Made by a program: the position numbers and the translations under genes | Assembly: GCA_030264375.1 (NCBI GenBank) | Contig: JASCQW010000081.1 | Span: forward strand, 92,630,052 to 92,693,750 | Length of the DNA stretch: 63,699 nt | Source of the DNA: Carcharhinus longimanus | Taxonomy: Eukaryota | Direction of reading: 5' to 3' | The notes under the pieces: model-generated | Databases searched by the model: none | Told to the model about the DNA's origin: nothing | Seen by the model: the letters and a program-made list of their open reading frames with translations, nothing else | Part shown: piece after piece, positions 3,714-60,340 of the stretch | Layout: every line of letters starts with the position of its first letter | Numbering within the stretch: position 1 is the first letter of the stretch

Positions 3714-3740
3714 CCTGCACTTTACTTTTGAACTGAGCTT
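3714..3740 (-). CDS. 27-nt micro-exon, (E)AQFKSKVQ
   Basis: tattgtttgcag|AAGCTCAGTTCAAAAGTAAAGTGCAGG|gtaaga. Confidence 0.8.
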
Positions 3741-5199
3741 CTGCAAACAATATTTAAAATGTCAAGCTAGTACCCAGATATGCGTTTGAAAATACAAACA
3801 TAGTTTCCTAAAATTACTCAGCCAGCCAGGCATGTTTAATGATAAAACGGAATAGCTAATCGTTCCATCTGGATGATATGCCATCACAGACATGAGGTCC
3901 TGCCAGATCTTTTAAATGCAGGCTGATTTGATTGTTTTGAATTCTGTTGCAACTGCAGTAGTTGTTCATCTATATTGTGGGTTATGTTTCTCCAAATATG
4001 GTCATTCGATTATAAAGGCTGATTGAAGCCACCAACTGTTTTACATTGATTGAACCTATTTTTTACGCAAGATCGGTGAACCTGTGAAAACTACAGCTCA
4101 TGTTGACTGAATACCTTGTGGTTTATATGCCATACGTTAGTTGTCCATGTCTCCAGCTGAAACATGACAAGAAATATATAGAAATACTCTTTTCTCTTTC
4201 CCATTTTGAATGAATGTCTCTTCCTGAAAGTTTTCAATTATGGGTAAAAATTCAATTCTTGCTAGCAATTGTCAATCTCGTATATATTGTAGAAATACAT
4301 GTCCATTTCTGGTCCAAAACCCCACAAACAGCGAGGAAATTAACAGCCAATTGATCTACTAATCCAGTTGCGTGCTCTTAGTTGATAAAACTGTACTCTG
4401 GTATCAGTTGCAATCAAGTAATAATAACACAATCGATTATTTATGACTGCGTTACACAATGAATTTTTCGCGTATGCAATAGGGACATAAAGAAAAAAAA
4501 GGACAGAAAACATATTCCTCGATGACCACGCAGTGACTGAGATCAGAGTTATTAATAAGACAAAACCTATGCATTTGCAGGAATGTTGTTGATTATTTCA
4601 CCAAATCGTTGGTACATTGTTGGTTTGTATCATCCATTTAGCCAACATTGATCAACTAAGACTTCTTGAAAACTCTTTCAAAAAACGCTGGACTGATATA
4701 GAAAATAATTGTAATGCGACACGTTATTGCCAAATACCCCCATTGCATTCGTGAAAAATAACTACAGGTATGTTGGCAGTCTGAGGTCACTGAAGAAGAT
4801 AGAGTTTTATTTCGACCAGGAGATCTCCGCACAACTGCTTCCGTTCTTCGTTTTCATCATTTAACCATGGCAGGACACATTTAGTATGTGGTCTATTGCA
4901 TGAACTTTCTTTGACACCAATCAACTGCAATTGAAGTGATGTTTGAATTATGTGTAAGTGTTGACAGTACAATTAACAGCACTAGTGTGGTAAAGATCTA
5001 TTATGTTCTCCACCCTGAATACAGTTGTATGGCACATATACAACAGAGTATTGCTTTAGCTTTCTCCAGTCAGTCAAAAAAATAATTTTCCCCTTACTGT
5101 ATTCTCAATAAATTATCTGCAACAGGTTGCGTACAGCAAGTCTGTCTAGGTAAATTAATATAAAACGTGGTAGATTTGTGAAATAAATTTTAGCACGTG

Positions 5200-7200
5200 A
5201 CTCAGGTTGACAGTTGAAATTCGATGGGATTCAAAAACGCATATGGCATATGCATCAAGTCGTTTTTTTTCACTGGTTAGGAATAGCTGCAAAACATTGC
5301 CGGTGATGGAAACCCAAATAAAAATGAGGAAGTTTTGGAAGAANNNNNNNNNNNNNNNNNNNNNNNNNNNNNNNNNNNNNNNNNNNNNNNNNNNNNNNNN
5401 NNNNNNNNNNNNNNNNNNNNNNNNNNNNNNNNNNNNNNNNNNNTGGAAGAACGTACTAGCTTTGTCAACATCTATGGAGATAGTAAGAAAGTTAGTGGTA
5501 CCAGTGCAACATGATACTCCTTTAAAGCGCTTTCTCTCTGATTTCCAAAAGATAAGCGACATTGGCCTCCGAATATTAGCTGTGTTCCTCTCTCCACAGT
5601 TGCTGTCAGACGTGATGGAAAAGGGGACTTGTTTTCGCCAATAGTTATAAGACATATCTGACCGTTTTGGGGAAGGGAAATTTATGACTGGCCATATTCG
5701 ATTATGGTGAGTGAAATGCCAAACTGATTTCCCAGTTATTTTACCACAGATGTGCATGAAGAGGTTCCTGATTATACTGCACCTAAGTTTCTAAAAGGAA
5801 TTTTACAAGGGGCCACGTCAAAAGTTGTTGAAAAAGAAGTCCATGTTATTGAGATACCATATTCGCATGGAAAAAGATGGGCAAGCTAACAGTAGTTCTC
5901 ACAGATATTATTTTTTTTCCGCTGGCAGGATGTAAAATGTTGTGTGTCACAACATTACTGTGCCCTTAACATTATTACCATTAATTTAGATTATTTAAAA
6001 AGAAGGGGAAGAAGTGTAATGCTGATACATTTTCTGAGAACAAAACAGATACCTAGGAAAGTGCGATTTGAAGCACATATTAGTTTAGTACAAAGGGGCA
6101 AGCGTCGTACTGCTGAGAAAAGAAACATGTTGCAGATCTTGGCCATGCATTCATTAGGCACATCACTGAAATATGATGAGAAAAGAACGGTTGAAACTAT
6201 GAAAATGGCCTACTGTTTGATGGGTAAGTGGACTGATTTTTCGAGGTTTCGCCATGGAGAATGCGCCAGGACATGGCGATTGACAATTAATTACATAGAA
6301 TTTCATGAAACTGGGATGAGGCAGTTTGACCCGATAGAATGAATCAGCAGATGGGTGCAGTATGTTTTCTTTAGCTGAAACAGATGCAATACGTGTACCT
6401 GCTATTTTGGCTTGCAAAGAGCACGTTATGTCTATGAATATTTGCAGCGTCTCTTACATGAGATGCCCCATTGTGCAAGAACGACTGTTAATTTTTAAGT
6501 TCTTGTCAGTGCAGTTCTAGCAAGCTGATCGTCATTTAGAAAATCGTTTGCAATCATGGAATCTCACCTCACGTTAAACAATATATTTTGAGTTCCGCAA
6601 ACGTAAGCTGGGAGGGTACGGTCTGCATTTATCATAGGTAAGTATTGTGTGCAACGATCTGGCAAAGGAGTGTATATTTGAAACATGTTACATTGTTCAA
6701 AAAAGTACATTATCTAAATTGTCAGAAATTAAAGCGCCCTAAGTAAGGGCGGATCCGGGTGTCACAGTGCCTGAACCAAAAAATGCTACTGTGCAGATAT
6801 AGCTTGTAATTAACAAAGGTATTATGGCGTTTATTTTATTTTGAGAGGAATTTATTATGAAGCGACTGAGGTCATTTCAAGTAGCATATCGTACTGGTGA
6901 AGCCAATGTGAAATATTGTGCGCAACAAGTCTCGATATATCTGGATATCCAGCCAAAGACTTAGAGAAAGTTCATGGAAAGTTTACAAGTCTAATACCGG
7001 AATTGGCGGTTTGGCTTTTCAGGAGCAATTAGGCAGTTTAGATTTGCATCCGTGGAGGTTTACATATGGAGATGCGACTTATTTCATACTGTAAGGCCCT
7101 GAAGGATCTCGACGGTGGCTGTGAAGAGAACGTTTTCCTTTTGTGCGGGAATGCAGATCTCCGTGTCACGGTTATAAGTATAAGGACAGTAGAACATATG
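5200..7200 (+). mobile_element. Highly decayed CR1-like LINE (RT region), contains an N gap
   Basis: Degenerate SLTSVVGK/GKSCLT/LDF.K and C-terminal LEKVHGKFTSLIP-type motifs with stops and frameshifts. Confidence 0.65.
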
Positions 7201-7269
7201 ATGTCGGAGCAGAAGCCGGTCAATAGCCCTCTCGAGACGGTTCGTTCATTCAGTGAGTTCAAACTAATC

Positions 7270-7700
7270 CAAAATAGTACACTTGAACTCCATCTTCGCA
7301 CCTTATTCCCATATCACGTCCCTCGGTTATTAAAACTCTGCTTATCATGTCTTGAGCACATTTAACGACCTAACCTCCACAGCCCTCTGCGGTGAATTTA
7401 ATAGATTTGAAATAACAAAATACTCCTGATGTCTCTTTTATATGTGTGGACATCTTCCACTGAGATAATTCTCTATGTTCCTGGATTCTGTCACAAGGGC
7501 AAGCCTCTTGGCATCTAACCTGTCAAGCATCCCTATAAGCTTCATCATCCTAGTTTGGACGCCTCACATCCTCCCTAACTACAACATGCCCAACTACTGA
7601 TCCTCTCTTCATAAGAAAATCCTCCCATACGCGGAATCAACCAAATGAGCATTTTATTGACAATCTCCAACACCAGTATATTTTTCCTTAGATACTTTCC
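7270..7700 (-). mobile_element. CR1-like 3' fragment
   Basis: WLIPRMGGFSYEERISS motif in ORF 7575..7772. Confidence 0.65.
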
Positions 7701-8077
7701 TCCTGTATGAATACAAACGTAATTGTTAGGTCGGGAAAGGACATTTGACGTAATAATGTCAGAAATATTCATACAAAATTGGCTGTCTGTTTAAAAACCT
7801 GTAGTAATCGATTTTACATAGAGTGTATATACTTTAAACCAAGACGTTCTACCTTCGCATGATAACAGTGATATAAATAATTATTGTTCATTTCTACATC
7901 TAATAGGAAACTATCAACACAATGCCAACATTACTATGCAACATACAGCAGTCAATTCCAGTGAAACGATTCCATTCAAATCCGAGGGATATAATTTTCA
8001 ATATTTGCGACAGCAAGTATGTATAAATTTCGATTACAAAGGTATTAATGAAATCAAGAAAAACGAATAAGTCCTAC

Positions 8078-8104
8078 CTAGATTCTCTATAGTTGTTTTG
8101 TGCT
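8078..8104 (-). CDS. 27-nt micro-exon, (E)HKTTIENL
   Basis: tattctttacatcag|AGCACAAAACAACTATAGAGAATCTAG|gtagga. Confidence 0.75.
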
Positions 8105-9399
8105 CTGATGTAAAGAATACATAATGTTAATAAAATTATCAATGACTTTAATTAGCAATGAGGCGTTTCTCTTGAACCCATACCGCCAATCCTACAGAAC
8201 ACAGCCTTTGTTTATTTCAGAGTAGATATTCGGACCAAAGGGTCCGAACATCTACTGATGCCTCCATATTCCGTGTGAAACATGTTTCAGGTGAAAAAAA
8301 AAATCACACGGTGTTCTCTCCAGATTTGAAGACAATGAATAGCTCCCAGGCTATGAGGCGCGTGTTTCGACTTGCAGGCAAAAAAAGGTTTGCACGGAAC
8401 TAAAATAAATTATTTGGTGACATTTCAAGAAAACGCAAAAAACACAGTTAATCTGAAAATAAAGATAAGAAAAAAATAAGCTTTTTTGATTCGCAGGATC
8501 AGATCTCTTCATGGACACCTCTGATTTCAAATTCAACATCGATTTGCCTTGTCAATTTGGCGATTAAGCTCGTCTAATGGTTCAGTGGAGCCACAAAGTA
8601 TGTGACCACGAATTGATCATGCCACTTAATGAAAGATGGCAGTACATGTGTAAACGTATCACCTTATCATCTGAAACAAAATACTATTTTTGCTACTGTG
8701 TGCGATTAATTCATAATTAATATTGTGGTTTCTGAAGTCCACCCCCCCCCTCCCCAAATGGATTGTCTGCATTCATATTGTGATCTGCTCCGAAGTTTTC
8801 CGAATTAATTTTCCTTTTTTTCAAATACTATTTTTATTGTTCGAGCCAGTCCTTTGGCAACGCCATGCACTGCTGATTTTATAATCCCAGAAAATTGATT
8901 TCAAAACATTTAGTAACATTTTTCTTAGATCATTGGGTTTATAATAGGGTCCTAAGCATGCCTGCCGAAATATTACACCAATAGTTGATGAAGGCACATT
9001 TGGAATCGATTTGACTCGCACCAGATGACAGCCATAAATGCAGCCAGTTTGCCGTAAAATCGCAAAGTATGCAGAAAATGTAACCTGGCGATAAAGTGCA
9101 CTACTTTGACACAATACAGAATTTAAATGAATACCTTTGAAGAAGAAGCCAGTCAATAATATGACGCATGAAAACCTTTATCGTTTCGGCGGTAGTTTTC
9201 ATTGACAAAAAAGTAAGCAACTTGTGTGAAGAATTATCACATTGTTGGGCCAAATGACCGGCTCCTGTGCGCAGTGAGGGGGTCATAAACAGTTCTATAA
9301 AATGACACTCGCTTTCTAAAACCGGAACATGGATCATGAGATTCGATTCTGTTACAGTACATCTATTCCTGACCCCATTATAACCTTGGTCAAATCTGG

Positions 9400-10610
9400 A
9401 AACAAAAGATTAAACACTGGAGGCGAGTTGAGCGTGCCAGTTCTTGACATCAGGGTAGCATTAAACTGAGTATGACATGTTTGAACCCTAGCAAAGCTGA
9501 AGTCACTTGGAGTCATGGTAACAACCATTAGTTCCATTAGTTGGATTCATATCCAGCACAATCATGGATGGTTATGACAATTGGAAGTCCATGTTCTATG
9601 CATGACATCACTGCAGGAAATTCTCAATGTAATTTCCTGGGCCAAATAATCTTCAGTTGCCTCACGAATTACATTCCTGCTTCAAACGTGCAGACATTTG
9701 GATGTTCAGTGATGATTGCATAATGTGCACCACCATATACTGAAACGATTCATGTCCAAATGCAACAAGATCTGGACAACATCCAGGCTTTCGTTGATAA
9801 GTGGCAAGTAAATGTCGCACCACATAAGTTTCAGGCAAAGAGCATCTCCAAATATGAGTGGTTCTGACCATTGGCCCTTGGCATTCAATGCCACCAAAAT
9901 CCTCACTAACAAAATTCTGGTAGTTCTTGTTCACCAAAAAACTGACCTTGACAGAACGTATAAATATGTTGTCTACATAAACAGGCCGGAATCTGGAAAT
10001 AATAGCTCCCATAATGACTCCCTGAAAGCTTTTCACCATCTAGTTCAAGTTTTTTTTTAGTTTATTTATTATGGTAAAGGTAGGCTTACATAAATATTGC
10101 AGTGAAGTTTGCATTATGGAAGGTGTTATGGAAAACTCTCCAATGGTCTGAATGCTTGTCGCTTCAACAAAATTTAAGGAGCTTGGCACTGCCTAAGACA
10201 GAGCAGTTTGATTGAATAGGATCCAACTGATGAACATTTACTTACTCATGACAGATGGAAAATGATAGCAGGATGCTGCACTCTCAAGGTGGAAAACAAA
10301 CTCAGCATGAATCATTCGCCAGGTAATTTCTAATCAATACCCCCTACCATCTAGAAAGTCAAATGTGACAGATAATTGCGACGACCAAACACTGGAACTT
10401 TCACTCCAAGTTACTCAACGTCTTAATTTAGAAGTGTATAACCTTTCCCTCAGTGTCTCTGGATTAAAATCCTGGAACTTTCCGTTAACCACATGGAAAT
10501 CCAACGGTTCAAGAGGGCAGTTCTCGAGTCTCTACTGAAGGCCACTGAGAGGTGAGAATAGATTTTGGGCTTGGCAGCGCGTCCAACATCCCACGAATGA
10601 ACTGAAAAGA
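9400..10610 (+). mobile_element. Decayed LINE RT and 3' end, same family as 48840-52004
   Basis: Nucleotide similarity to 50850-52000 (gatgattgca, caagatctggacaacatccaggct, catcccacgaatgaa). Confidence 0.7.
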
Positions 10611-11163
10611 AAGACTGGTGGGACGAAATGCATGTGGTTAAATCCAACGTTACACAATCATTCTGCATATTTAAGCATTCATTTGTTGCTGTACTAGGAA
10701 AACGCGAAAATGCGGATCANNNNNNNNNNNNNAGTAGCCGTTTTAAATGAATAGAAATAAATCCTGACTTTTATGAACAAATTATATTTTGTTATATGTT
10801 TGAATTCAATTGAGGCGCTTTTTTAATTGAGTTCGCAGCAAACGTCATAGAATAACGTATTATGAACTGGACGCTATATCAGTCAATGTTGTGTTGCAAA
10901 TCATTCATTTTGTTAACGTCAAACTTGCTCTTCTCAAGTGACCGAAAGCTTTAACCTATTGAATAAACACAGTTAAATTTTGTTTTATGCAACCTTTTCA
11001 TTCGTATGTACTGACTGACTTATTTCACAATAATCAACAACAAAATTTGCATTTTTTGCATTATTTGCATGTTAGCGCACGGCTGACGAGAAATACGTTT
11101 AACATTGCGAAAGATACAAAAATGTCTTGATAAATGATTTTTGCATGTTCTGACGAAATTTAC

Positions 11164-11187
11164 CTTTATTTGCTTTGAAAGTTGCAA
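11164..11187 (-). CDS. Candidate 24-nt phase-1 exon, (V)ATFKANK
   Basis: tttttcgctttaccag|TTGCAACTTTCAAAGCAAATAAAG|gtaaat. Confidence 0.55.
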
Positions 11188-11379
11188 CTGGTAAAGCGAA
11201 AAACATTGTAAATTAACAGACAATGTCGGACTACCTCGGGAAAAAAAAATCCAGATCAGCAAAAGCAGAATTACACTCGATAATTGTAGGATTGCACCCG
11301 CTGATTATTTACCTTAATATTTTATCAGCGTACCAATAACTCTGGAATTAATTCCTGCCTATTGCACCATTAGTCTTGT

Positions 11380-11620
11380 GTTAACTCGCGGTCTCCAATT
11401 AATTATATACCCACTGATGTGTGGCTTTGGCAGTCGTCCAACGATTGCTAAATTTAGTGTTCTACATTTCATTTTCCTTCTCAGCTCCCAAAAGTCAACT
11501 TGGATGACAGCATTCCACTGTTTATCCATGTCATTGACATCGATTTGAACCAAAATCTCTGACCCTTTATCTGCTCCACTCGGACCGTTCTTGAATAGCT
11601 CCATGGCGTTACTAAAAATG
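11380..11620 (-). mobile_element. CR1 ORF1 (SGNH esterase-like) fragment
   Basis: ILVQIDVNDMDK..VIQVDFWELRRKMKCRT..IVGRLP resembles the CR1 ORF1 consensus VVHIGTND..DFRELG.KLKSRT..ISGLLP. Confidence 0.65.
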
Positions 11621-12131
11621 CAATAATTTAAACAACAAATCATCTAGCTTATGAGTGAGGCTGAATATCAGTATGAAGACTATATATTCTTAAAAAACAG
11701 GTACACTCACTTGTGCCTCATCCTCAGAGACGCCCTACTGCTTGGTGTTTTCCTGCTGTCTTTAAAGTCTGAATTTATTTAGATCGTCCACTTCAGAGAA
11801 ATGAAGAATGGCTGATTTCGAGATAAATTGACACACACGTAAACTGAGCGCAGGGTAATAGGAATTGCCCATTTTAATAGATAGCTAAACTCACAATTGG
11901 AATATATTTCCTTTGCAAAAAAAGAACAAACGAGACAATTGCATGTACTGGAAATCACGTTGATACTTTACCGAGTTGCAAACGAAGCATATCACTTTCT
12001 GAAGTTGAACAGAGATTCACACAATGTAACTGAAATAATAGATTAACTTCTCGTTTGATCTGCAATTCAATTATTTGTATTTGCATTCATGGTTTGAGCT
12101 CAACTGTTTACGCCAATTATTTCTGTTTTAC

Positions 12132-12179
12132 CAAATGCAATGTTTTCAACAATTGCATGGATATAAGCAAGTGAATCAC
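12132..12179 (-). CDS. Candidate 48-nt phase-1 exon, (G)DSLAYIHAIVENIAF
   Basis: tatttgctgtttcag|GTGATTCAC...GCATTTG|gtaaaa; 79-nt intron from the 18-nt candidate. Confidence 0.45.
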
Positions 12180-12258
12180 CTGAAACAGCAAATACTTGAA
12201 GGAAAACTAATTAAATGATCATAGTTGACTTGCTTCCTGATGAATACAACTTTCTTAC

Positions 12259-12276
12259 CCAAAGCAGTAGGTTTCA
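12259..12276 (-). CDS. Candidate 18-nt phase-1 exon, (x)KPTAL
   Basis: tttccttattcggtttgcag|TGAAACCTACTGCTTTGG|gtaaga. Confidence 0.5.
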
Positions 12277-12992
12277 CTGCAAACCGAATAAGGAAATAAA
12301 TAAATAGATAAATCGTTTTCCGATCATCAAACGTAGAAAGAAGAATTAGCTTACGCAATATTTTCTCCACCTTTAGGATTATCCAGCAATTCTCCTTCCC
12401 AAAACGGGAGCAGGTTTTGTTTTTGTAGTCAGACGTAACTGCTCCATTTACCACTCCTCTTATTTCAATGGACGTACTGTGATTTCGAGTGAAAATCAAG
12501 TTTATATCAAAATGGTTGCGTATACTGGAAATAATGTCCCACGGCCGCAAAATGCATTCAACCCTATTGAGAAACAACAGACTTAATCAGTTCACAGCAA
12601 TTAGCGAGGCACTCTGAGGTCTGGTCATGTGGAAGTTCTTAATATCTGTTTAGTTTTGGCCAATTTTTATTTTCGGAGAATTAACGAACTTTGAAAGCAG
12701 GAACAAAAGAATAGGTGGAACCATAAGCCATCACGTTAAAAAAAAACACATTGTCATTAGATTCCAAAGAAGGCATTAAAGTGGACGATGCAAAGTGATT
12801 GCAGATTGCATCCAACGACATTGTCGGGAATACATATGCTGTTGGAACTTGGTCATTATCTTAATAAGTATTCTGATCCAATACTGTACAGGATACTCTG
12901 TTAACCCACAACATCTAACCAAAGACTATAATAGGCGTACATTTGAAATCTACCGCTAACTATTACAATTTTGTGAAGCATTTTCAAAGTAC

Positions 12993-13016
12993 CATTTAAC
13001 ATCAACATTTCTTTTC
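12993..13016 (-). CDS. Candidate 24-nt phase-1 exon, (G)KEMLMLN
   Basis: Strong acceptor ttgttctttccccttcag, weak donor G|gtactt. Confidence 0.3.
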
Positions 13017-14049
13017 CTGAAGGGGAAAGAACAATCGATGAGACATGTGTGTGTTGAAGAAACTGCCTTGCTCTGTTTCTGCAATTACATTTTTTGATTG
13101 GAATAAATTTATTGACCATGTTTTAAACCCGATGTATGTGCAGAATTATGAGTTTTTTTATTCTTTTACTAATGTTGGCAATTTGATGAATGCTATGTGG
13201 TCAGACAGCGAATTATTGGACTTGACCTCGACGTATTTTTGTCATATACGAATCATTCATCTCAGGATATCAGTATGAAATATTTGATATAAATATGCAG
13301 GAATTCCCAATTCCCCAACTCTCTGCATCACTTTTCTCCCCCTTCATTGAAATGTGTCATTATTATTTAAAATTCATGCTGGGTTTCGCCTCTTATTTGA
13401 TGCTGAACCGAAGTGTTGCCGAAAAAAGAGATACGTTGGTGCACGTGCTAGTCTTGCACTTTTTAGGCCGGATAAAGATTTGTCAAATATCAAAGGAGAA
13501 TTCATGCCTCATGGAAAATGGCGCTGATTTTTCGGCAAATTGAAATTGCTACGTCGAAGCATTATCAAAAAATATACCACAAGGGAGTTTTTTTTTTCCC
13601 AATCTAATGTTTTGTTCAGCAACGGCTCAATAACAGAAGAAATAACGTCCCTGCATCTGATTATATTCAGCTTCTAGCGTTCGGAAATGAACCTCATTGC
13701 GAGTCCGGCTGCTCATCGTAAACTGAATGCTAGTGTACTTAGCACAGTCGTGATTGTTCACCAAGCGTTGCCAAAACGTGGATTCATAGCAAGCGTTGAC
13801 TTTACGGTGTGAGTTATGTAAGTACTGCCTTGGTGAGTACAATCAAGACTCGACCTATCGCGAATAATCAAATGGATTTGTTGTTTGAGCTCATCTACCA
13901 ATGTTTGGGATAACTAACCCAATGGTCTCGCATTCCCATAACATTGAAAACAATTTACCAATTGCCATGTTTTCATTTACCAATCAATCAGAAAGTGTAT
14001 TATGTTCTCAACAGCAAATCTGAAACTTTTTTCTTCTTTCTCACAATGG

Positions 14050-15130
14050 CTATTACTCCAAATGCCCGTCGTCGAGATATTAATCATGTTTTATCCTTAA
14101 ATGTCGTTGGTGATGCTTACACTTTGCCCAGATGTTGAGAATGTCTCCAGCCTACAACAATTGGTGTTGCAGGCGTTATTATTGAATTATTGTGGTGTAG
14201 TCTTCAGGATGACAGCAACATTTATCCCTCGGAGCCCTGATTGGATCTGGAGAATGTGCATTGGCGCTGTCGTTGTAATTTCTCCAGGGTCGTGTGTTTC
14301 GCAGATGCTTACTCTAAGTATTTCAGCAGTGCGGGGGCAGAGTCGACGACAACGGATTGGGACACTATGCGTTTATATGATTGCAAGCTATCTTTGAAGT
14401 CACACAGAGACTTGTAGAATGTGCTCCTCCAATGTTTAATCTATTCGTCAATTGTGTTTTCTGAGATGTATTTGCCTAGCTATAGAAAATGCTCAATATA
14501 TTCAAGAGTATCTCATTCAACATGTCTTAGAGTTGGAGACATTCGCTGAGCATGTGTAAGGTGAGATCCGAGTTTTGTTTTAGAACATACAGGGACGGAT
14601 CGAATCTGATATGTGCAAAATTTAAAACATCAAAATTGGCTTGCAAATGTAATTGCAGAGTGGTGAAAAGCACATTAGGCCTTTGCAGGTCATGTATGCA
14701 TAAAATGGTCGCTTTGCTTTTGCACGGAGGCAACTGAGGGCAGACAAGTCTGCATCCAGGCAGCATCTCATGCTGACACCAGGTGACAGTTGAGTTTCGA
14801 TGAGCTGATTGCGCTGTTAGGCCAGCTGCACATACCATGGGCGTTATTGCTCAGCGTTACCTGACACCGAATTTGTCATTCAACGATCTGTCCCAGATCA
14901 TTCAATCATCAAGTTTGTAGCCATTTGTTCGTGAAATAGTTGAAGGATTGTGGCGGCGTTCCTTGGTCATCCAAACATTCTGAACACATTCCCAAGCCTC
15001 GTCATTTTCTGAGCAAAATGTAATGATTCTACAAATGACTACAATGAAGGAGGGTTTTCCCTGGATGTCGATGACAACCAGGGCAATGTCAAATGTTACA
15101 GCCTCGCTCGCGGTCAACAGACATTGCCAT
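14050..15130 (-). mobile_element. Decayed LINE fragment, family of 48840-52004
   Basis: Reverse-strand RT remnants (AVTFDI, IDIQGK). Confidence 0.5.
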
Positions 15131-44631: not shown

Positions 44632-44658
44632 CTGCTTTGAGATGGATCAACCGTTCGT
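44632..44658 (-). CDS. 27-nt micro-exon, (D)ERLIHLKA
   Basis: ttaacttttgcag|ACGAACGGTTGATCCATCTCAAAGCAG|gtaagt. Confidence 0.88.
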
Positions 44659-47804: not shown

Positions 47805-47831
47805 CATCAGTTTTGTATTGCATGTCTTGGA
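47805..47831 (-). CDS. 27-nt micro-exon, (V)QDMQYKTD
   Basis: tttttgttttcatttag|TCCAAGACATGCAATACAAAACTGATG|gtgagt. Confidence 0.85.
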
Positions 47832-48790: not shown

Positions 48791-48839
48791 ATCATAATGC
48801 ACAAAATGTCAGAATTGCTGGTCTCTACCCACCTTGGAT

Positions 48840-51800
48840 GGGAGATAATGGCCTAGTGGTATTATCGGTCGACAATTAATCCAGAAGCCAGATAAAGTTC
48901 TGATGCCTGGGTTCGAATTCCGCCAGGGCAGATGGTGGATATGAAGTCAATTAAAAAAAAATCTGAAATTAAGATCTATTGATGACCACGAAACCATTGT
49001 CGATTTTGGGGAAAACCTAGCCGGTTCACTAATGTCATTTTGCGAAGGAAATTTGCCTTCCTTACCGGGCCTGGACCACATGGGATCCCAGAGCCATAAC
49101 AAAATGGTTGACTCTCAGTTGTCTTCTGAAATGGCCTAGCAACCACTCAGACGTATCCATCGCTGCAAAGTCTCAAGAAAGATATGAAACTAGACGGACC
49201 AGCTGGCTTTGACCTCGGCACCGGGAAAGACAACAGCAAAAGAAGGAGCCCTGTCAACTCTGCAACATCCTCCTTACCAACATCTGGTGGTTAATGGATG
49301 GCTAAGACTGGGAGAGCTGTCGCATAGATTCATCAAACAACAGCCTGACATACTGTTTCTTACGGAGCCGTACATCCAAAACCCTAAATATCACCATTAC
49401 CATCCTTGGATATGTCCTGTCTCAGCGGCAGGACAAGACCCGCTGGAGGTGGTGGCACAATGGTATACAGTCAGGAGGGAGTTTCCCTGGGAGGCCTTAA
49501 CATCGACTCCGGACTCCATGAAGTTTCATGGCTTCAGGTTAATTATGGAAACCTCTTCCTGGTTACCACGTATCCTCTTCTTTCGGCTGATGTATTGGTA
49601 ATACTCCATGTTGAACAAAACTTGGAGGAAACACTGAGAGTGACAATGGCGCAAAATCTACTGTGGGTGGGGGATTTCTATTTCCATCACCACGCCTGGC
49701 TCGGCCTGAACTGGTCTGGTCCTGATTGACTGGGTCTGCAGTAGGTGGTGAAGGAACCAACAAGAGGAAAAGCATACTTGACGTCATTCTTACAAATCTG
49801 CTTCTGCAGATCCATCTGTCCATGTCATTAGCGGTACGAGTGAAAAAAAAACAAATTTTTTGGAGATGAAGTCCCGCCTTGATATTGAGAAGAACCATCC
49901 TCGTGGCAGTATCACCGTGCCAAATGGGGCAGAGTTCGAACTGTTCTTGGAAGTCAAGACTGTGCATCCATGGGGCTTTGCGGGTCATCAAAATAATCAG
50001 GAATGTACTGACACAATCCAAAACCTCATGGCACTTCAAATTTCCCACTCAACAATTACCATCAAGCCAGTGGATCAAACCTGGTTCAATGGAAAATGCA
50101 GGAGGGCATGCCAGGAGCAGCACTGGGGTATACCTAAAACTGAGATATCTCTCTGATGAAGCTACTGAACAGGGCTGCTTGCATGCCAAAAGCAAAAAAA
50201 AGTGACTCAAAATCAGCTGATCAGACCTAAGCTATGCCGTTGTAGCACATCAATCGTGACTGTTGATGGAGAACTAAGCATCAGGGTGGAGGAGGAATAC
50301 TCCAGAAATATCCCTATCCTCGGTGATGGAGGATTCCAGTGCAAAAGATAAGACTAAGGTATTTGTATTCATCTTCACCCAGAAGCGCCGATCTATTTCA
50401 GCCTCCACTAGTGGGCCCCCGCTTCCCAGTCTCCAGCAAATTAGAGTCATTCCACGTAATATCTAAAACGGTTGGAGGCACTGGATACTGCAAAGGCAAT
50501 AGGCCCTGATGACATTCCGTCAATAGTACTGTCATTGCTCCAGAATTTGCCGTTCCCCTACCTAAGCTCTTGTAGTACATTTAGAACGTTGGCATCTACC
50601 CAACAATGTGGAACATCGCCCCGATATGTCCTTTACACAAACAAGCAGGGCAAATCCAACCAGTAAACGTCCAAACAGTCTACACCGGATCATCAGTAAA
50701 ATGGTAGAAAGGGAATCAACAGCCCTGTTCAGCTGTAAGCTGCTCGCTGACGCCCCATTTGGTTTTCGTCAGGGTCTCTTAGCTGCTGGTCTCTATACAA
50801 CCTTGGTTCAATCATGGACAAAGAACTGAACCCAGTCATTAGGTGAGAGTGATAGCCCTCAATATCAAGGTCACATTCTACCGAATGCGTTATCATGGAG
50901 CACTAGCAAAACTATAGTCAGTGAATATCAGGGGACAAGCACTCGGACGGTTGAAGCCATACGTGACATATAGGAATATGATTGAAGTTGTGGAGCGCCA
51001 GTCCTGTCAGCTCCAGAACATCTCTGCAGAAGTCCTTTGGGGTAATCTTCTAGGCCCAAAGACCTTCAGCTGCTTCATCAATGACGTCCCCTCCGTCACA
51101 AGGTGAGAATTGGGGATTTTTCCCGATGATTGCACAATGTTCAGCACTGTTCAGAACTCCTCAGATAAAGAAGCAGGGAACGTTGAAATGCAACACGATG
51201 TGGACAATGTCTAGGCTTGGGCTGACAACTGGCAAATAACATTTGGGCCGCACAAATGCCATGCAATGACCATCACCAGTAAGTGACATTCAACAACCCC
51301 CCACCCCTCCTTGACATTTGATGATATTGCCTTCACTGAGTGCCACACACTGCCAACATCTTTGGGTTTACCATTAACCGGAAACTCAATTGGGCTCACC
51401 ACATAAACACAATGGCTATAAAAGCAAGTCAGAGGTTAGGAATACTGCGACGACTAATCAGTTCCTGACTCCACAAAGCCTATCCGCCATCTTCAGTGCA
51501 CAAGCCAGGAGCGCGATGGAGTTCTCTCCACTTTCTTGGATGGGTCCAGCTCCAAAAATACTTAGGAAGTTTGACACCATCCAGGAAAAAGCAACTCCCT
51601 TGATAGGCACCATATCAACGAACATCCTCTCCCATCCCCTACTGACGCTCTGTAGCATCAGTGTGTGCTATCAACAAGATTAGCAATTCACCAAAGATCC
51701 TTAGCTCCTTCTAAACCAGAAAACTTCCGTCTCGAACGACGAAGACAACAAATACCCTTGCGTCTGGGAACACCTCCAATTGTAAGCTACTCTCGAATCC

Positions 51801-52004
51801 ACTCACAATGCGGATTTGGAAATGTATCACTGTTCCTTTGCAGTCGCTCCGTCAAAATCCTGGAATTCCCTCCCGAACGGCATCGTGGGTCAAACATAGG
51901 CTGCAGCAATGCAAGAAAACAGCTTATCACCACCTTTTCAAGGGAAACTAGGGTGGGCAATAAAAGCTTGTCATCCAGCAGCGCCCGTGTCCCAGGAATG
52001 AATA
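48840..52004 (+). mobile_element. Near full-length decayed non-LTR retrotransposon (APE endonuclease + RT, CR1/L2-group-like) with a tRNA-like head
   Basis: QQPDILFLTE, GGGGT, WVGDF, GPDDIP, FGFRQG and LLGPKTFSCFINDVP motifs across frameshifts; A-box tggcctagtgg 48849-48859 and B-box ggttcgaattcc 48910-48921. Confidence 0.88.
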
Positions 52005-52689
52005 GCAGTAGTAAATGAGTTGATTCTTTACGGTATTCCTGCTGACAGCAAATCATTGGTATGCTTGCGTGGTGGCATGGAACATGACATAGAGATTCTC
52101 TTCTGTAATGGCGAATAGCATCCGCTTTTCTTGGATGTCAAATGGTTGAGGTTGAAGAGTTTTTTTGGTCCATCTCACAGAGAATGTCCCCTTCACTGGG
52201 AGGTTTGAACTGAAAAACTGCAGGATAGGGGTGATGAAGTTAGACAAAACAAGTCACGGCCATAACACATCACTTCTTAACCCAAGTCTTGGCCTGGAAT
52301 GTTTGTGTCTTATTTATGTCGGTGAAGTTTGTCAGCATTGTCTTTTCATTGAGATTTCACAGGATATTGATGCATATCTTTGTTCAATCTGCATTTGTCA
52401 GTGCCTTCCATAATCCTTTCAAATGAACTGAATCAAAAGCTTGGTCAGATAGTTGGAGGCCATATAAGGTGTTTGATGTCGATCCTGACATTTCTCTCGA
52501 TGTTGTCAAGCAGTGAAAATCATATTTGTTGTTCATTGTTTACTGGGAAGCGTTCTGGAATGCTTTCAGAGAATTGATAAAAAAAAAGTGGCAAAGGCAT
52601 GGACTTTGCCTAATGATAGAGAAGAGAGAAGTTCCATGGTAGAACCTACAGTTCAATTAAACTTATTTAATGTCATACAGCTATCGATA

Positions 52690-53200
52690 TCAACGACATA
52701 GTAAAGGACATTCGATCCACCACAACTAGGCATGACAAACACAAAGTGCCCAACAATTCTGATCTACTCTTACAGCAGTTGGTGGACAGCACAGTATTCG
52801 TTGGTAGAACAAGTGCAGATTAAAATAGCTTGTAAATGTAACGACGTCCCTACCTCAGCCATCCTTCCAGAAAGTGAGTTCCGAATTCTCATTACGGTCC
52901 CTGTGAAAAATGCTTCACCTCTCATCCCTTCTAAACCTCCTACGCCTTGCGTGGATCCATGGCCCTTTATCATTGATGCCTCCATTCTTGTCTATTCTAT
53001 GTATGCCCATCATGTTTTTATACATTTCTTTCATGTTCTTTCACTTCTCCGCTGTTCCATGAAAATAATAACAGTTTATATATTTTTTTTTCACAGCTAA
53101 ATCTCCCTAGATCGGGCAACGTCTGGGTAAATCTCCTCTGCACCCTTTCCACTGCAATTTCGAACCTCCTACAATGTGTATTCCAGAACTGCAAACCTGT
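52690..53200 (-). mobile_element. CR1-like 3' fragment
   Basis: ERVQRRFTQTLP; MRGEAFFT..RNSL. Confidence 0.75.
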
Positions 53201-54929
53201 GTACATGCGTGCCACTTCAGGTTTTAGAACCTTTAAAGGGTACAGGGATTTTTTTTGCTCTATCCCCGATTTTCAGGAGCACGTGATGGAGATGACTGGT
53301 AATCTCTTGCATTCCAATTTTCGAAATCGCCGCCAGAATCCGCTCCATTCCTACGTACCCAATGGTGGTTTCTACTTCACCAACTCTTGGTGGGATTGCA
53401 ATTTCATAATTGATGGGGTGTTGGAGGAGTCCTATGAACACAATGACATTTGTGATTGTGTCAGAGTATAGCAGCTCTCTTCAAATGTTCTTCCCATCGA
53501 AGGCTAATGTTTTCAATGTCTTTCAAATCATATCCGTCCTTACTTCACATTACTAAGAAATCTGAACTGTACTTGGCATTTTGGAGAATACAATGTACAA
53601 CGTGGAGTAGAAGTCTTCTTCAGATGCATCATTGCCATTCAAAATTAAGTCTCAGCCAGTCACAAAAGTGTTTTCGTTTGGTTCTGCAAAATTAAAAGCA
53701 GAATCATAAGGCGCTCTTTGATGCCGAATAGGAGATCTGAGCGTCGGTGGGTGTGCTGGTTACTGATGGTGAATCCAATTCCTTGCATCATAAGTTCAAT
53801 CTTGCATTTTGCTTTCTAGGCAAAGATATAACCGCCACTTTCTCCCCTGTGCTGCCGTTCACCAGCTCCCGGGGTTTCTTGTGGGGCAGCGAGAATAACG
53901 TTGAGGTGTTTGAGTTCAAGTGAGTCACGTTCCCTGTTCCCATCGATTATTTTGTTCGTTACATTGAGCGTTTTTAGATTCCAGTCTCCAGGATTGACTT
54001 TATCTTTCATAAATGGACCAACTGGAGGCGATTTTACGTGCAGGTTGCCGATAGAGCATACTATTTTTATGGCACGTTTGCTAGCTTTTTGCGCGGAGAA
54101 CAGCATGGATCTTGAAACATGCTGCTCAACAACGAAGGAAGCTACAAATAAGCTCTCGTTTTCCTATTCCAAGAGTGAACGACTGAATTAAACTTCACTG
54201 CTTACTTGCCAGCACAACGCTAATGACTTTAAGATCTCATGATCCTGTCCCATTCTCCTCTTTCTGGTTGCGGTTGGGCTGGATTATGCCGTGGGCGTGC
54301 GTTAGTTTCTTCTAGGTAGATATTTTCTGTAGGGAATTTTTTAAAGTGGGAACACCGTTGCACATTGCCCGCCTTTGTCAAAAGTAAATGCAGTTTCATT
54401 GGCAAAGGAACCTTGATTGTGGACCTCGCGTAGTCCGACAGAGTTCATCTGCCATTACAACCATTGATATCGCAAGGGCATCTGCCGCCTGATACAATGT
54501 TTAACAGTTGTTTCGAAATGCGATTTTCTAGTTCCTCCCGTCCAACCTGATCGTCGTGGGAGACCAATCAGCAATTAAAGTAGCCAAACAATGTCAATGT
54601 CTGGTTCAACGTGGTCATCTATCACAATAATAGATATTGTAATCAAGCCATATAGATTTTAGTACAAACTACAGAAAACACAACCGGATATCATGAACAC
54701 ATTTACTTGTAAAGGTTACACCGCCCCCAGTTATGTCTAACATAAAGAGTTTGAACGTTCGTTGGCACTGAAGTGCCGACGCCTGTGAGAATGATAAATA
54801 GTTTTGGGATTAGTTTTCTTATATTGGGTTTGTGGACTTTTTCCACCATTCTTATACTCTGCCAGCCCCACCCATACCCATTATCTATCGCTCTATCTCT
54901 GGTAGCTCCATTGAGAACCCATCGTAAGT

Positions 54930-55400
54930 CCATGAGAACGTAAGACATATGAGCAGAATTGGCCACTCAGCCTATCGTCTGCTCCGACATTCAATCATGG
55001 CTTTTTTTTTCTCATCACCATTCTTCTGCCTTTTCCCCATTACCCCGATCCCCTTATTAATCAAAAATCAATCTATCTTTTTTTTTTCTTAAAGGCAAGT
55101 AATGACCTGGCCTCCACAGCCTCCTGCGGCGAAAAAAAAAATCCACAGATTCACTACACTGTGCCTCAAGCACTTCCTCCTCATCTCTGTTTTAAATAAT
55201 CGTCCCTTTACCCTGAATTTGTGCGCTCTGGTCCTAACCTGTCCTACTAGTGGAAAAATCAACTCCACGTCCATTCTATCCAGGCCCCGCTGTAGCCTTT
55301 ATGCTTCGATAAGATCCTCCACCCCCCCAAGACCACCCCCCTTCCTCTAATCTCCAACGTGTACAGACTCAGAGTCCTCAACCGTTCCTCATACCACAAA
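54930..55400 (-). mobile_element. CR1-like 3' end
   Basis: FPLVGQVRTRAHKFRVKGRLFKTEMRR..VVNLW. Confidence 0.88.
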
Positions 55401-55924
55401 ATGACGTATCTCTCCGAATATTAATAAAGTCATGCATTTTACATGCATTCCGAACGCCCAATGATCCCATTGACATGCATATTATATGCGAAGACCATCA
55501 AAAGACCTCTATTTTACTTAACAGTCTTTGAGGCAGACAGTGCAACAGACTCTTTGCCCTCGTAAGGTGGTATATTTGCAAGTATTTAACTGTCGTGACA
55601 GCTGAATTTGTAGTCATCAACAAATACAATCATGTTTTCTGTTCCAATTGGCCCCTTTCAGCATTGCACCCTGGAGAGTATTTTGGCATTCCTTTTTAAA
55701 ATACATTCCTGTCTAAAGTTCCCCGTAAGGATATTAGCCTCGTAGGCAATCCGTCCTTTTGAAAATGACCATACAGTGAAATTCTATACTTCCCATCACA
55801 ATTCAGTTCAATTGAAGCTAATAATACACAATATCAGGCAGAACTCAAAACCTGTGGCATATGTGCTGACATCATTCTTGTTCCACAGTGCAAGATGACG
55901 TTTTATATTTTTGAGTAAATTTAC

Positions 55925-55960
55925 CTGCAACTTCAAGTAGTTTAGTCAATTCCATTTGCT
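55925..55960 (-). CDS. 36-nt micro-exon, (E)QMELTKLLEVA
   Basis: tactcttttttag|AGCAAATGGAATTGACTAAACTACTTGAAGTTGCAG|gtaaat. Confidence 0.85.
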
Positions 55961-56019
55961 CTAAAAAAGAGTAAACTGTCATTGTGAATTAAATAGGCTT
56001 TTGATGGGTAGGTTTAGGC

Positions 56020-56330
56020 TGATCAATAGATGCTGAAACCTTAAACCCTTTTGAGTCAACACGAAGTCTGGTGACGTAGTAGATGAAACACCAACGATGG
56101 AGAAGAATTTATCCTCTGAATCTTTGTCAGAAAGCTGTGGGAACAGAATTCATTTGTATTTTTGAGCCCGAGATTGATTTTTTTTCTTTAGGAAGGGAAT
56201 CAAGATTTATGGGAAAAGGACAGAAAAACTGGTGTAACGTTGTCGGATCTGACGTGATCTGATGGAAGGCGGAGGATCAGTGAGAAGTACAACAGCTGAC
56301 TCCTGTCCTTATCTTCGATGGTCTTATGGA
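56020..56330 (+). mobile_element. CR1-like 3' end
   Basis: gatggagaagaatttatcctct ... tcctgtccttatcttcgatggtcttatgg. Confidence 0.6.
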
Positions 56331-57081
56331 CTTAGATCGGCAAAGCAATTTTTAAGCTTATTCAGGGATTCTTTTGACTAAGAAAATTCTTCGTGCCAGT
56401 AAGAGACAGTATTGACATCCTAATTATAATCAACTTAAAGATACAAAAAAGAGAATAATGGCGGGATATTTGAAATGTACTATTTCACCAACTTTCATTG
56501 AAGAACAATTGCATTGTTCCATTGGTTGTATGATTAGGACACAACATTCATTCCACCAATACTGCCTGCATTATTGATTGAATGCAGGAAACACTCGACG
56601 CACAAATCTCTCTGTTTTGTTTGAATAAACAATGCATGTACTCTGTCGTGATTGCGGTTACCACTGGAAGAAACAGATCAATGCCCTCCAAGCTGTGAAA
56701 TCCAACTTTAATGCCATGTCTTTTTTTTCTCTCTCTCTTTCTGATAGCCGATCAGTTGAAGGTCCGTATGCGAATTAGCAGAAAACATCACATTGTTGTG
56801 TTCAAACAAAGATTAAATGCAACCAAAGAAGCTGCTATTGCCAGGTCTGGCAATATATTCTCTTCCCACATAGAATTAGTTTTGACAAGAGCATCAAACG
56901 TCATGAAAACAGATCGATTCAATCCTGGTTTAGGTGCCGTTACCTGCTTCAATATTGAGTGTATTCACGCTGAACTATCAGTTACTCAATGTTACCTACA
57001 TTCCCCAAATTTACTTAATAATTTTTGGCTAACTACAATGTTATCAAACTTATTTTAGAAGCATTGAAAACGGGTCATTAC

Positions 57082-57108
57082 CTTTGTCTTTTATTTCCAT
57101 TTGCTTGT
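57082..57108 (-). CDS. 27-nt micro-exon, (D)KQMEIKDK
   Basis: tgttattttgcag|ACAAGCAAATGGAAATAAAAGACAAAG|gtaatg. Confidence 0.85.
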
Positions 57109-58959
57109 CTGCAAAATAACAACATGAAATGTTAATCTAAAAGGTAAGGATCATATAGCAATGTATTATTTTACAAAAAATGAGACGTTGAATACACATC
57201 TTGACTCATGACCTTCACGCAACACACACTACGACATTGTTCGATTTTCTTTCTATATATAGCTGTGTGCATGAATAATACTGTTTCAATTTGATTTAAA
57301 ATGATTCTATGAATATTCTTCGCGTCAAATAACTGTAGCGCATGAAAAGACCACATCAATCGCCGAATTCCCTGATACTCCCTAACTTGCGATGAACACT
57401 TACAGACATGTCTAATTTTATTGACTTACTGAGAAATCTTGTTAGTGCTGTTGGGAATTTCGTCCTTGGAAAGCAGCAGCACGCTCATAAGAGACAGGTA
57501 GTAGTTTACATCGAAAATGCTAAAAGCAGAAGCAGTCGACGATTTTCGTGACCAAGTATCACTCAGAGAGCCTGCATACCAAATTAGTGTTAATCCTGGA
57601 AGTTGGGAAGCTGACGCGAACACAACAACTGTTGAAAATACAAAGCGGCTCAAGCAGCACCTTGAGAAATAATGATTAATGTTGCCGCCACCCCTTCCCT
57701 TTACAGTCAGAAGATCCACATAATTACTATTTCTGTTAAATGATTGCTAGTTAGAATCAACATCATTCAAGCCATTAAAAGGATATCAACGACTCGGTCT
57801 AAGTTTATATTCCACTGAACTGGATCTATCGGATTATTATCCATTCACCGACCCGAGTTTACATGTGTTCATTATATTCATTCATTTCTACATTCCACAG
57901 CTGCATTCGACACTGAAATTAACTCATTTCTGATTTGATGATGAAACTTTGGGGTTGCATTTTCACCAGAAAGCTGTGCAGGATGTACGGAAAATGACAT
58001 TAACATGCCATCGGACTTATGTAGAAGCAGCACAATCCTCTGCCAAGCCTCCAAATGTGCAATTTTCGATTAAGCCTGTTGATACTAATTTCACACGTCC
58101 TCTCAGTTCTTCAGAGCCACCTGTCCAGGTCCTTCAGTCTTCCGAATACTCAACCCCACGTAGACAGCCCCCTCAGGCTCTTTACCCTGTTCTCCTCCCC
58201 CCAGTTACTTCTGGACTTGCAACACTATCAACTTCCTGCCTGACCTATTGCATTACCGGTAATGGTCGCGCTATCAGTGGCACCAAGAGACTGGAGAGCG
58301 GCTGACCGCTGATTTGTAGGCGGCCCGCTTGAAGCAGTATTTCATTGTTGTGACCGGCGTAAGAAAAGGCTCTGACAAGTTTCAGCCATTTGTTTCCGCG
58401 TAGTTATTTTAATAGCTGTAGTGGCGCAGGGGTTGGGATGGGGGGAGCGATGTAACTTCTCGAGTCTGGCGGAGATACCGGCACATTTTTCGTTTATTTG
58501 CTGAGGACCGTGGTCAATTCAAAAGCGGTTTTACGACAGCAATCTACAAAATCGGTAGAAACAGCTGTCGTTCTTGGCGTAGCAACACACAGAATGTGGA
58601 GTAGAGATCATTTTAAGCCAAAGGGAAACTGTGAAAAAGGATCCATTTCAATCAAACATTCCCTATTGTTTAATATTGCCCGAGAAACTTCGTTTTGTTT
58701 TTATGTGAAAAGCAAAACATTTAGCAATCAAATAACTGTGCCAGTTTCCCAACGCGCTCCTGCTGTATGTATAAGGGTGATAATACAAACCCGACATTTT
58801 TATGCGGTTTTCTAATTCTGTGATAGAAACGAACAAAAAATCAATATTTAACATATTCCCTCGTTTTTATCAGTAGGATATGTTGATGTCGAAGATCTTA
58901 CCGTATGCTTCTCCGCATCATTGCAGGATTATACCTTGTATTATCACCTGAATATTAAA

Positions 58960-59290
58960 AGTGGGGCTGCACGTGGTACCGTGGCTAGCATTGCTATCTC
59001 ACAGCGCCAAGGTCCAGGCTTCAATTCTGGCCTCGGGTCACTGTCTGTTGGAGTTTGCACTTTCTCCCCGTGTCTGCATGGATTTGCTCCTGGTGCTCCC
59101 GTGTCCACGCATATTCCAAAAACGTGCGGATTAGGTTGATTGGCTACGCTAAATTGACCCCAGTGTAACGGGGATTAGCACGGTAAATGCGTGGGGTTAC
59201 AGGAGTGAGGCCTAGGTGGAATTGTGGTCGGTACAGGCTTGATGGGTCCAATGGCCTCCTTCTGTATTGTACGGGTTCTATGGTTCTGTG
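58960..59290 (+). mobile_element. Full-length HE1/V-SINE-like tRNA-derived SINE
   Basis: tRNA-like head, V-domain ggagtttgcactttctccccgtgtctgc, CR1-type tail aatggcctccttctg...ttctatggttctgtg. Confidence 0.9.
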
Positions 59291-60313
59291 AAAGCAGAAA
59301 ATGTAAAGCAGAGGTTCTGCCAGATGTTTATTTGTTTGATTTACTAGAAGAGAAATCGTATCAAGTCGTTTGACCACCTTAAGGTTGCATGGATTGACGT
59401 CTCTCCTCTTCACTTCTCTGATGTATAAGACTTTTTGCCATAGCCTGAAGTTCACCCGTTCTTTAAAAAAAAACATTCACAGAAAAGTCTGGCGCGAATT
59501 GCTTCATGACAACGTTACGGCAATCTTGGAATGCATCGATTCCATACGCCGATATTAGGTGTCATCGCTTCGGTTTCTGATGTGTTCGAATTAGTTACTT
59601 TCCCCGTAGTCATCTTATATTCGTACTTGTTCATTTACCAAAGTCAAGTTTGTACACTTGGTTATGCGTAAATTCTCCATTGCCAAAGATCTTGTCGAAA
59701 AATACATGGTCTCAGCCTTCAAGCTCTGAAGCCTACCAAAAACTCAAATACACCATTTAAAGCCTCAGATTCACTTCTTCTATTACAAAGGTCTTAGTAA
59801 TACGGAAGAGTGATCAAGTTTACAGTTATCAAAGTTTGATAACTGCATCACGCCAAATGCATGGCAGCACTGTACTGCCCAGCTTGGCATACCTGCTGAA
59901 CCTTCGAGTAATATTGCACCCTGTAACATTCAATTAATTAGTAAGTCAGCACAACGTAAAACGAATGGCTTCTGTTTCCCTTTTGGTAGCAAAAGCCCTG
60001 GGGTATTATGAATGCATTCGTTTAAATTAGCAATAAGTGGCAATGTCAGATCAAATAATTACACACAAAAACATCGTGAGTTGCAATGACAAAAATACAA
60101 ACAATGGCATGAAATAAATGCAACGAGAATGACAACGTACTGGATTACATCCAGTTGCCATATCCGTTCAAACAATTGGTGAGGTAAAACGTGTAGACAT
60201 CGACAGTGCTTTTCAGAATTTGTGTGTTTTTATTTTTGAGTAGGTCCTTTAATAAATCGTGCATTTTATTGAGACGACTGCCATCTTTGTTAAAAACACG
60301 TTTTGTGTCTCAC

Positions 60314-60340
60314 CTGTCTGTTTATCAAGCATATGATTTT
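60314..60340 (-). CDS. 27-nt micro-exon, (x)NHMLDKQT
   Basis: ttttctttcttatag|AAAATCATATGCTTGATAAACAGACAG|gtgaga. Confidence 0.85.

Follow-up and report, generated by a model that had tools for sequence, protein, structure and literature searches.

The stretch of DNA analysed here, referred to as the window, comprises 63,699 nucleotides (1..63699) of contig C81 (JASCQW010000081.1) of the shark Carcharhinus longimanus. Its minus strand carries 19 phase-1 micro-exons with AG/GT ends, 537 nt in total. The gene to which they belong, named copy A, is with high confidence a member of a family in which a long coiled-coil rod encoded by micro-exons is followed by a B30.2 domain. The whole window lies inside copy A, and the ATG exon and broken B30.2 exon of this copy, together with the paralogues B, Z and Y, are found outside it. 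Copy B is the neighbouring tandem paralogue, and an AG/GT exon of the same length in copy B is called a twin. Coordinates are window positions; outside the window they correspond to the C81 position minus 92,630,051.

The 19 exons comprise 13 of 27 nt, four of 36 nt, one of 24 nt and one of 18 nt. Thirteen consecutive ones tile residues 267-392 of P0010 (working label of XP_038671248.1, a RefSeq predicted model from the catshark Scyliorhinus canicula) with no gap. In the direction of the gene these are 60314..60340 (27 nt, phase 1-1, residues 267-275), 58791..58817 (27 nt, 276-284, identical peptide), 57082..57108 (27 nt, 285-293), 55925..55960 (36 nt, 294-305), 47987..48013 (27 nt, 306-314, with the weak donor GTTAAA), 47805..47831 (27 nt, 315-323), 44632..44658 (27 nt, 324-332), 44458..44484 (27 nt, 333-341), 37198..37224 (27 nt, 342-350), 36191..36226 (36 nt, 351-362), 34017..34043 (27 nt, 363-371), 31339..31374 (36 nt, 372-383) and 26637..26663 (27 nt, 384-392), the last reliable catshark match. 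A fourteenth abutting match (21472) was weak and was left out of the count. The remaining six exons are 26221..26256 (36 nt), 12259..12276 (18 nt, the least certain, 50% identical to its twin), 11972..11998 (27 nt), 11164..11187 (24 nt), 8078..8104 (27 nt) and 3714..3740 (27 nt). An intact twin was found for 18 of the 48 window candidates examined. The nineteenth exon, 26637..26663, was accepted on its catshark match and not on a twin; copy B has a 27-nt candidate at the matching spacing, though it is not alignable. A 100-N gap at 47079-47178 is bridged with about 14 bases by one contig of run X5, from another organism, which makes a hidden exon unlikely there.

The original prediction had described a hidden coiled-coil gene made of 11 frame-preserving minus-strand segments of 27 or 36 nt, and its observation is confirmed while its interpretation is partly supported. 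Such AG/GT phase-1 segments exist, 60340 being the first base and 3714 the last base of 27-nt exons. The peptide it quoted was traced to exons 44658-44632 and 44484-44458, and the two junctions it expected (44658 to 44484 and 37224 to 36226) both fall within the gap-free tiling of P0010. The hidden gene was thus correctly recognized and the count was too low. A possible lineage-specific protein had also been suggested. It is not specific to this species, as the catshark has an orthologue and there are further loci of the family.

Several lines of evidence support the exons. A generic splice-site scan of 464 kb returned 27-nt exons on the minus strand only (27 versus 0 on the plus strand) and 36-nt exons mostly there (18 versus 1); in the window alone the excess was slight (three of 27 nt and one of 36 nt at a score of at least 8). 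A model whose training exons all lay outside the window found 17 exons of 27 or 36 nt on the window's minus strand and none on its plus strand. When the 537-nt set was joined, no stop codon was present in the phase-1 frame, versus 13 and 17 in the other frames. The chain score of the window against P0010 was 450, compared with at most 124 for 100 shuffled proteins, 99 for the reversed protein and 46 for the plus strand. In addition, self-comparison revealed a 132-nt ATG exon 72 kb past the window's end, whose frame was fixed by synonymous differences between copies. Used as a query, it retrieved two catshark proteins, P0009 and P0010, and both models start at the family's ATG exon. Predicted models of the RefSeq type draw on RNA alignments, and 27-nt exons separated by kilobase introns would presumably not have been joined in P0010 without RNA. 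There is hardly any doubt that the micro-exons of the window are real. Over 43500-61500, contigs from the DNA of related organisms showed about 95% identity; with 40 of the 1574 differences shown, they were uninformative on exon conservation.

XP_038671248.1 is annotated as "centromere-associated protein E-like". No Pfam family over the cut-off was found in it and hence no kinesin motor, so this label is unsupported. It is the orthologue of the 5' part of copies A and B with identical exon order, and the match ends at the exon equivalent to window 26663. Its Atlas matches were generic coiled coils with few shared features. No longer relative (754-2150 residues) was seen among 7987 scored candidates, a weak negative that does not cover the range near P0010's own length. 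P0011 was considered as a relative and rejected as a chance repeat match.

Over the 1.86 Mb scanned, minus-strand candidates outnumber plus-strand ones by 318 to 21. Nearly all lie in four minus-strand tandem arrays, Y, Z, A and B, which span at least 1.69 Mb of the contig that carries the class I genes of the major histocompatibility complex (MHC). Array Y (+1,050 to +766 kb) has 55 candidates, with no start and no B30.2 exon found. Array Z (+708 to about +189 kb) has 88 candidates and its own ATG exon, again with no B30.2 exon found. Copy A extends from +135 kb to -200 kb, roughly 335,000 bases, from its ATG exon (+135,358 to +135,227) through at least 68 candidates, equivalent to about 667 residues, to a broken B30.2 exon at about -199,830 to -200,330 that was found by comparison with copy B. 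The latter (-230 to -639 kb, 104 candidates) ends in an intact SPRY/B30.2 exon at -638,247 to -638,755. The family plan is therefore a short acidic ATG exon, tens to more than 100 phase-1 candidates, mostly of 27 or 36 nt, and one B30.2 exon, complete in copy B. The possibility that array Y is a misplaced middle of copy A was rejected, as Y continues for 200 kb further with its own exons.

Genome-wide, three ATG exons were found, those of copies A, B and Z. The first exon of P0010 is closest to that of copy A and the first exon of P0009 to that of Z, which suggests that the separate starts predate the split from catsharks. A motif, D-E-Y-(I/M)-N-I-G-T, is conserved in the ATG exons of A, B and Z and in both catshark proteins; we take it to resemble a Y-x-N SH2 docking site.

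With respect to the surroundings, C81 carries 12 of the 22 MHC class I matches. They fall at 84.5-88.9 Mb, some 3 Mb away from the array end, a linkage that rests on assembly scaffolding. Butyrophilin-type immunoglobulin (IgC) matches occur on C81 at 88.0, 90.2 and 99.7-101.5 Mb, and none within the arrays. Many B30.2 exons lie at 85.9-102 Mb of the same contig. Micro-exon candidates likewise precede the nearest others (C81 94.27 Mb and contig C119), at 19 vs 0 over 70 kb, 5 vs 0 over 40 kb and 5 vs 0 over 20 kb. Of six loci compared, the five B30.2 exons translated in the correct frame share the motif W-x4-W-N-I. According to the available text of PMC12841164, butyrophilins sit on the shark MHC class I chromosome; the words butyrophilin, BTN and TRIM do not occur in the main text of PMC10751288 as far as it was available.

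The last exon of copy B was assigned to Pfam SPRY with 38.9 bits (cut-off 26.3). It matched 86 PDB sequences, the best being BTN3A1 (E=2.6e-14, 56.7 bits, TRIM21 giving 51.6 bits; the match covers residues 65-182), and 30 of 30 Atlas matches were SPRY. A single-sequence structure model of this domain had a predicted local distance difference test score (pLDDT) of 36.7 and was unusable. At family level copy B is thus a B30.2/PRY-SPRY protein; in copy A, the window's own gene, this domain is not intact. The original prediction had expected a B30.2 exon beyond position 1, and one lies 200 kb away, broken in copy A and intact in copy B. It had also expected Ig exons upstream, and here none was found. 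None of 26 matches to butyrophilin IgC (PF22705) fell within C81 91.8-94.4 Mb, no IgC or IgV match was present at any of the three ATG starts, and no full IgV pattern was seen in six frames of the 1.86 Mb, a search limited by N gaps upstream of A and Z. A candidate exon upstream of the ATG exon has in-frame stops ahead of its conserved donor in copies A and B. No hydrophobic stretch was visible in the matched part of P0010 or in the ATG exons, and no scan was aimed at transmembrane or hydrophobic exons. Neither a RING nor a B-box pattern was found in the arrays; the only RING match lies 86 kb downstream of copy B's end, in another gene. In the gaps between copies, no Pfam match over the cut-off was obtained among 150 tested of 332 non-repeat open reading frames (ORFs), a test that missed the frameshifted B30.2 exon of copy A. 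The interval between the end of copy A and the start of copy B is 30 kb long and nearly gap-free (300 N).

The encoded peptide is predicted to be helical. An AlphaFold2 single-sequence model of P0010 contained helices at residues 38-149, 152-210 and 224-409 (mean pLDDT 74.7, predicted template modelling score 0.22), and the hydrophobic period was 3.4-3.5 residues. Hydrophobic residues occupy positions 2, 5 and 9 in 81-89% of the 79 exons with 36 nt and position 4 in 61% of the 163 with 27 nt; the exon scoring model favours Leu and Ile, not their positions. From these positions it follows that 36+27 nt make up three heptads. The 9/12-residue module, previously described as unusual, is therefore compatible with heptads. 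When exon order was shuffled, the 3.5-residue period was preserved less well than in the natural order, both overall (19/2000) and in residues 223-392 (18/2000), but not in residues 39-209 (228/2000 shuffles). Skipping of single exons in silico gave mixed results (relative power 0.51-2.08; 0.68-1.12 for pairs), so this test does not prove that skipping is harmful. Tandem block duplications of 31 residues in Z and 37 residues in Y were observed, and one dead 36+27 exon pair in copy A is a further visible length change. A general 21-residue duplication unit was rejected, since units of 31 and 37 residues occur and 6 of 103 steps led from one 36-nt exon to another, close to the expected number of about 9. 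At -74 to -102 kb, copy A contains a run of 18-24-nt candidates, several of them rich in Gly, Ser and Ala and two of them near-identical 21-nt copies, possibly a hinge in the rod.

Copy A displays a broken head and a conserved rod. Compared with copy B, its B30.2 exon has seven frameshifts and two stops, nine lesions in 510 nt. Run X1 carries identical letters at this site, which excludes an assembly error only, because X1 may be the assembly's own sample; two other organisms show deletions of their own, of 4 nt in run X2 and of 2 nt in runs X3 and X5. By contrast, of the 62 copy B micro-exons that could be aligned, 59 are intact in copy A (58 distinct A exons), and eight of 70 had no alignable partner. 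Nearby intronic AG/GT dinucleotides were kept in 193 of 581 cases. The ratio of nonsynonymous to synonymous substitution (dN/dS) between A and B was 0.45 (0.34-0.60) for the micro-exons overall, 0.27 (0.14-0.49) for 16 window exons and 0.75 (0.50-1.21) for the B30.2 exon. With three lesions in 62 aligned exons versus nine in the 510-nt B30.2 exon, selection on the rod appears to have outlasted the death of the head by a long time. Two neighbouring exons, 98807 (donor lost) and 94539 (26 nt), account for two of the three lesions and together form one 36+27 unit; with both skipped, the frame is open into the window. Copy A also lacks, across a 5.5-kb gap, the part that corresponds to -507 to -634 kb of copy B, through either deletion or assembly loss.

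Conserved micro-exons combined with a broken B30.2 exon make it likely that copy A encodes a headless rod. Judged from sequence, we consider it somewhat probable (roughly 55%) that copy A is an active gene for a soluble, headless coiled-coil rod of the rod-plus-B30.2 family. The micro-exons would be spliced in order into one long amphipathic helix. A residue adds 0.15 nm to a helix, which would give about 100 nm for A and about 150 nm for B, and the rod is predicted to dimerise. It is probably cytoplasmic, since no Ig exon was found. In complete members the B30.2 domain would act as the ligand-binding head, and the rod would hold two such recognition domains apart, as the coils of TRIM proteins and butyrophilins do. 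Copy A could then be a rod-only partner or competitor of complete members, or a cytoskeletal rod like the chicken zipper protein. In humans, BTN3A2 is a B30.2-less partner that pairs through its coil. With exons this small and symmetric, whole blocks could be duplicated or lost, lengthening or shortening the rod while the frame is kept.

A number of observations weigh against a working headless rod. The main doubt is the 26-nt exon 94539, which keeps its AG and GT; if spliced in, it brings a stop at residue 169, before the window, and only its skipping, or use of a weak 12-nt donor, keeps the frame. The last candidate exon of copy A (-186895) lacks both splice sites, and no new stop exon was found for this copy. 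The 5' exons of copy A had a dN/dS of 0.59 with an interval of up to 1.03, and the intervals for the micro-exons overall and for the B30.2 exon overlap. The hydrophobic period of the window part alone was not significant, being reached by 26 of 200 shuffles. The lack of a B30.2 domain in the orthologous model P0010 would fit a headless rod, but it may be incompleteness, because the ending of the model looks like intron read-through. Finally, copy A is further from the catshark than copy B in the window (75 vs 86 of 105 residues).

The first coil exons present the opposite picture, the catshark match being 36/68 for copy B (-250 to -279 kb, including a Pro) and 50/68 for copy A. Division of function or gene conversion are possible explanations for this opposite closeness of A and B.

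The broken B30.2 exon, the frameshifting 26-nt exon and the lost donor upstream of the window, together with the faster change of copy A than copy B in the window, would also fit a recently dead pseudogene in which the head decayed first and the rod later, the window exons being too young for decay. This is an unlikely reading that deserves attention; the contrast in lesion density described above speaks against it, as does the finding that the two upstream lesions hit neighbours making exactly one 21-residue unit, a single case. A different account would treat the arrays as one read-through unit, in which the exons of Y, Z and A splice on into B and share its intact B30.2 exon, and the ATG exons are alternative starts as well as internal phase-1 exons. 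This exon is the only intact one in 1.86 Mb and lies at the extreme 3' end, no stop exon was found for A, Z or Y, and in each of the three ATG exons the ATG is preceded, at 14 nt, by an acceptor from which the phase-1 frame is open. Four open codons are nevertheless expected by chance about 83% of the time, the catshark models start at the ATG, and the N stretches after Y (13.6 kb) and Z (12.5 kb) could hide B30.2 exons. Moreover, copy A has remains of its own B30.2 exon and hence arose as a whole gene. A single read-through unit thus seems improbable. It is likewise doubtful that the locus is a protocadherin-like ruler, in which hundreds of interchangeable micro-exons are entered from several promoters and ATG exons and spliced onto one shared B30.2 exon, with headless rods such as copy A in addition. 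If true, such a locus would make cytoplasmic rods that range from about 1,000 to about 3,000 residues and share one recognition head.

The mechanism proposed in the original prediction, by which the omission of any one exon would let cells adjust the length of the rod, is decidedly unlikely. Its premise stands, since each of the 19 window exons is in phase 1 with a length divisible by 3 and the frame is kept, and chicken BG tails show exon skipping and read-through in the available text of PMC5043582. The tuning itself is unsupported: 9 and 12 are not multiples of 7, the natural order keeps the 3.5-residue period better (outside residues 39-209), and the visible length changes, the 31- and 37-residue blocks, are genomic, as described for BG1 in the part of that source consulted. 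Least probable is that the rod is the cytoplasmic tail of a transmembrane BG or butyrophilin receptor, with its Ig and transmembrane exons situated further upstream or hidden in assembly gaps. The MHC-linked position between butyrophilin-type IgC exons, the phase-1 acceptor on the ATG exon, the N-terminal tyrosine motif and the best PDB match to BTN3A1, by a small margin over TRIM21, would suit such a receptor; the lack of any IgC or IgV match at the three starts and the nearly gap-free A-to-B interval, with no Pfam match over the cut-off among the tested ORFs, do not.

Returning to the headless rod and its family, some neighbouring features were also recorded. Z contains, at +453 to +362 kb, a recent local expansion of at least seven 27/30-nt exons that are nearly identical, rich in Arg, Asp and Met and unlike the heptad exons. 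At -8097 to -7174 on the plus strand (L042:1903-2826), an intact last exon of a desmoglein-2-like gene lies in an intron of copy A. It is 80% identical to a Mustelus protein, and contig C61 holds the remaining desmoglein exons. A repeat-like stretch precedes it, and the 4-kb contig on which both lie also bears a true micro-exon; this contig is therefore probably a chimera, though a real transposition could also explain the arrangement. An interleaved desmoglein gene was rejected, only the last exon being present. The outer ends of the arrays gave SPRY, RING and RPS5 matches (150 tested of 825 ORFs). A RING-finger exon (L157:5079-5747 minus, about -724 kb) lies beside RPS5-family exons (L154 plus, about -757 to -753 kb). 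Presumably these resemble the human RPS5-RNF225 pair. Situated downstream of copy B, they are usable as a synteny anchor for other genomes.

The arrays represent a large, mis-annotated immune-region gene family of sharks. No paper describing this family or its accessions was found; supplements, where shark MHC gene tables might use other names, were not covered. More than 300 micro-exon candidates in multi-kilobase introns offer an extreme test case for micro-exon splicing and gene annotation, and a complete rod-plus-B30.2 gene beside a selected headless rod would be a natural system for studying the division of work between coil and head. The window adds the contrast of a dead head and a conserved rod.

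Among known systems, the Schistosoma MEG genes are similar in that nearly all of the coding sequence lies in short exons between kilobase introns; they are unrelated secreted parasite proteins, and the analogy is architectural only (PMC10526429, in part). TRIM-B30.2 proteins share a coiled coil followed by B30.2 and clusters in the MHC region, as stated in the consulted part of PMC8813856. They differ in having RING and B-box domains, for neither of which a pattern was found in the shark arrays. TRIM coils are also short and encoded by few ordinary exons. The butyrophilins BTN3A and BTN2A, from the portions available of PMC8813856 and PMC12841164, have a heptad region followed by a B30.2 exon and in sharks lie on the MHC chromosome. 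Their plan is IgV-IgC-TM (TM, transmembrane region) with a short heptad region, whereas the shark coil is about 1000 residues long and an ectodomain was not found.

The analogy with chicken BG and butyrophilin genes drawn in the original prediction was well founded. Like the shark family, BG genes form an MHC-linked tandem array in one orientation and encode a long coiled-coil tail in tiny exons (PMC8813856, PMC4046983, PMC5043582, each as far as available). The same partial sources indicate that BG tail length varies by gain or loss of multi-exon blocks, with four-exon repeats in BG1 (PMC5043582), and that BG lacks B30.2, as copy A does. The zipper protein, derived from a BG tail, regulates the interaction of actin and myosin (PMC4046983, in part). 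BG differs in its IgV domain, transmembrane region and 21-nt exons, BG1 having 13-21 tail exons according to the text available; in the shark family no Ig exon was found, the exons are of 27 or 36 nt with 55-104 candidates per array, each copy occupies about 280-520 kb, and the end is a B30.2 exon. A heptad coil of small symmetric exons and MHC linkage are thus shared with butyrophilins and BG. The family is a member neither of these, no Ig exon being found, nor of the TRIM proteins, no RING or B-box pattern being found in the arrays. Whether orphan B30.2 proteins bind BG tails is listed as an open question in the consulted part of PMC8813856. By architectural analogy, the shark family resembles a fusion of a BG tail with the head of a butyrophilin or TRIM protein; with no detectable ectodomain, it would join two halves that are kept apart in birds and mammals, the micro-exon coil of BG and the B30.2 domain of butyrophilins.

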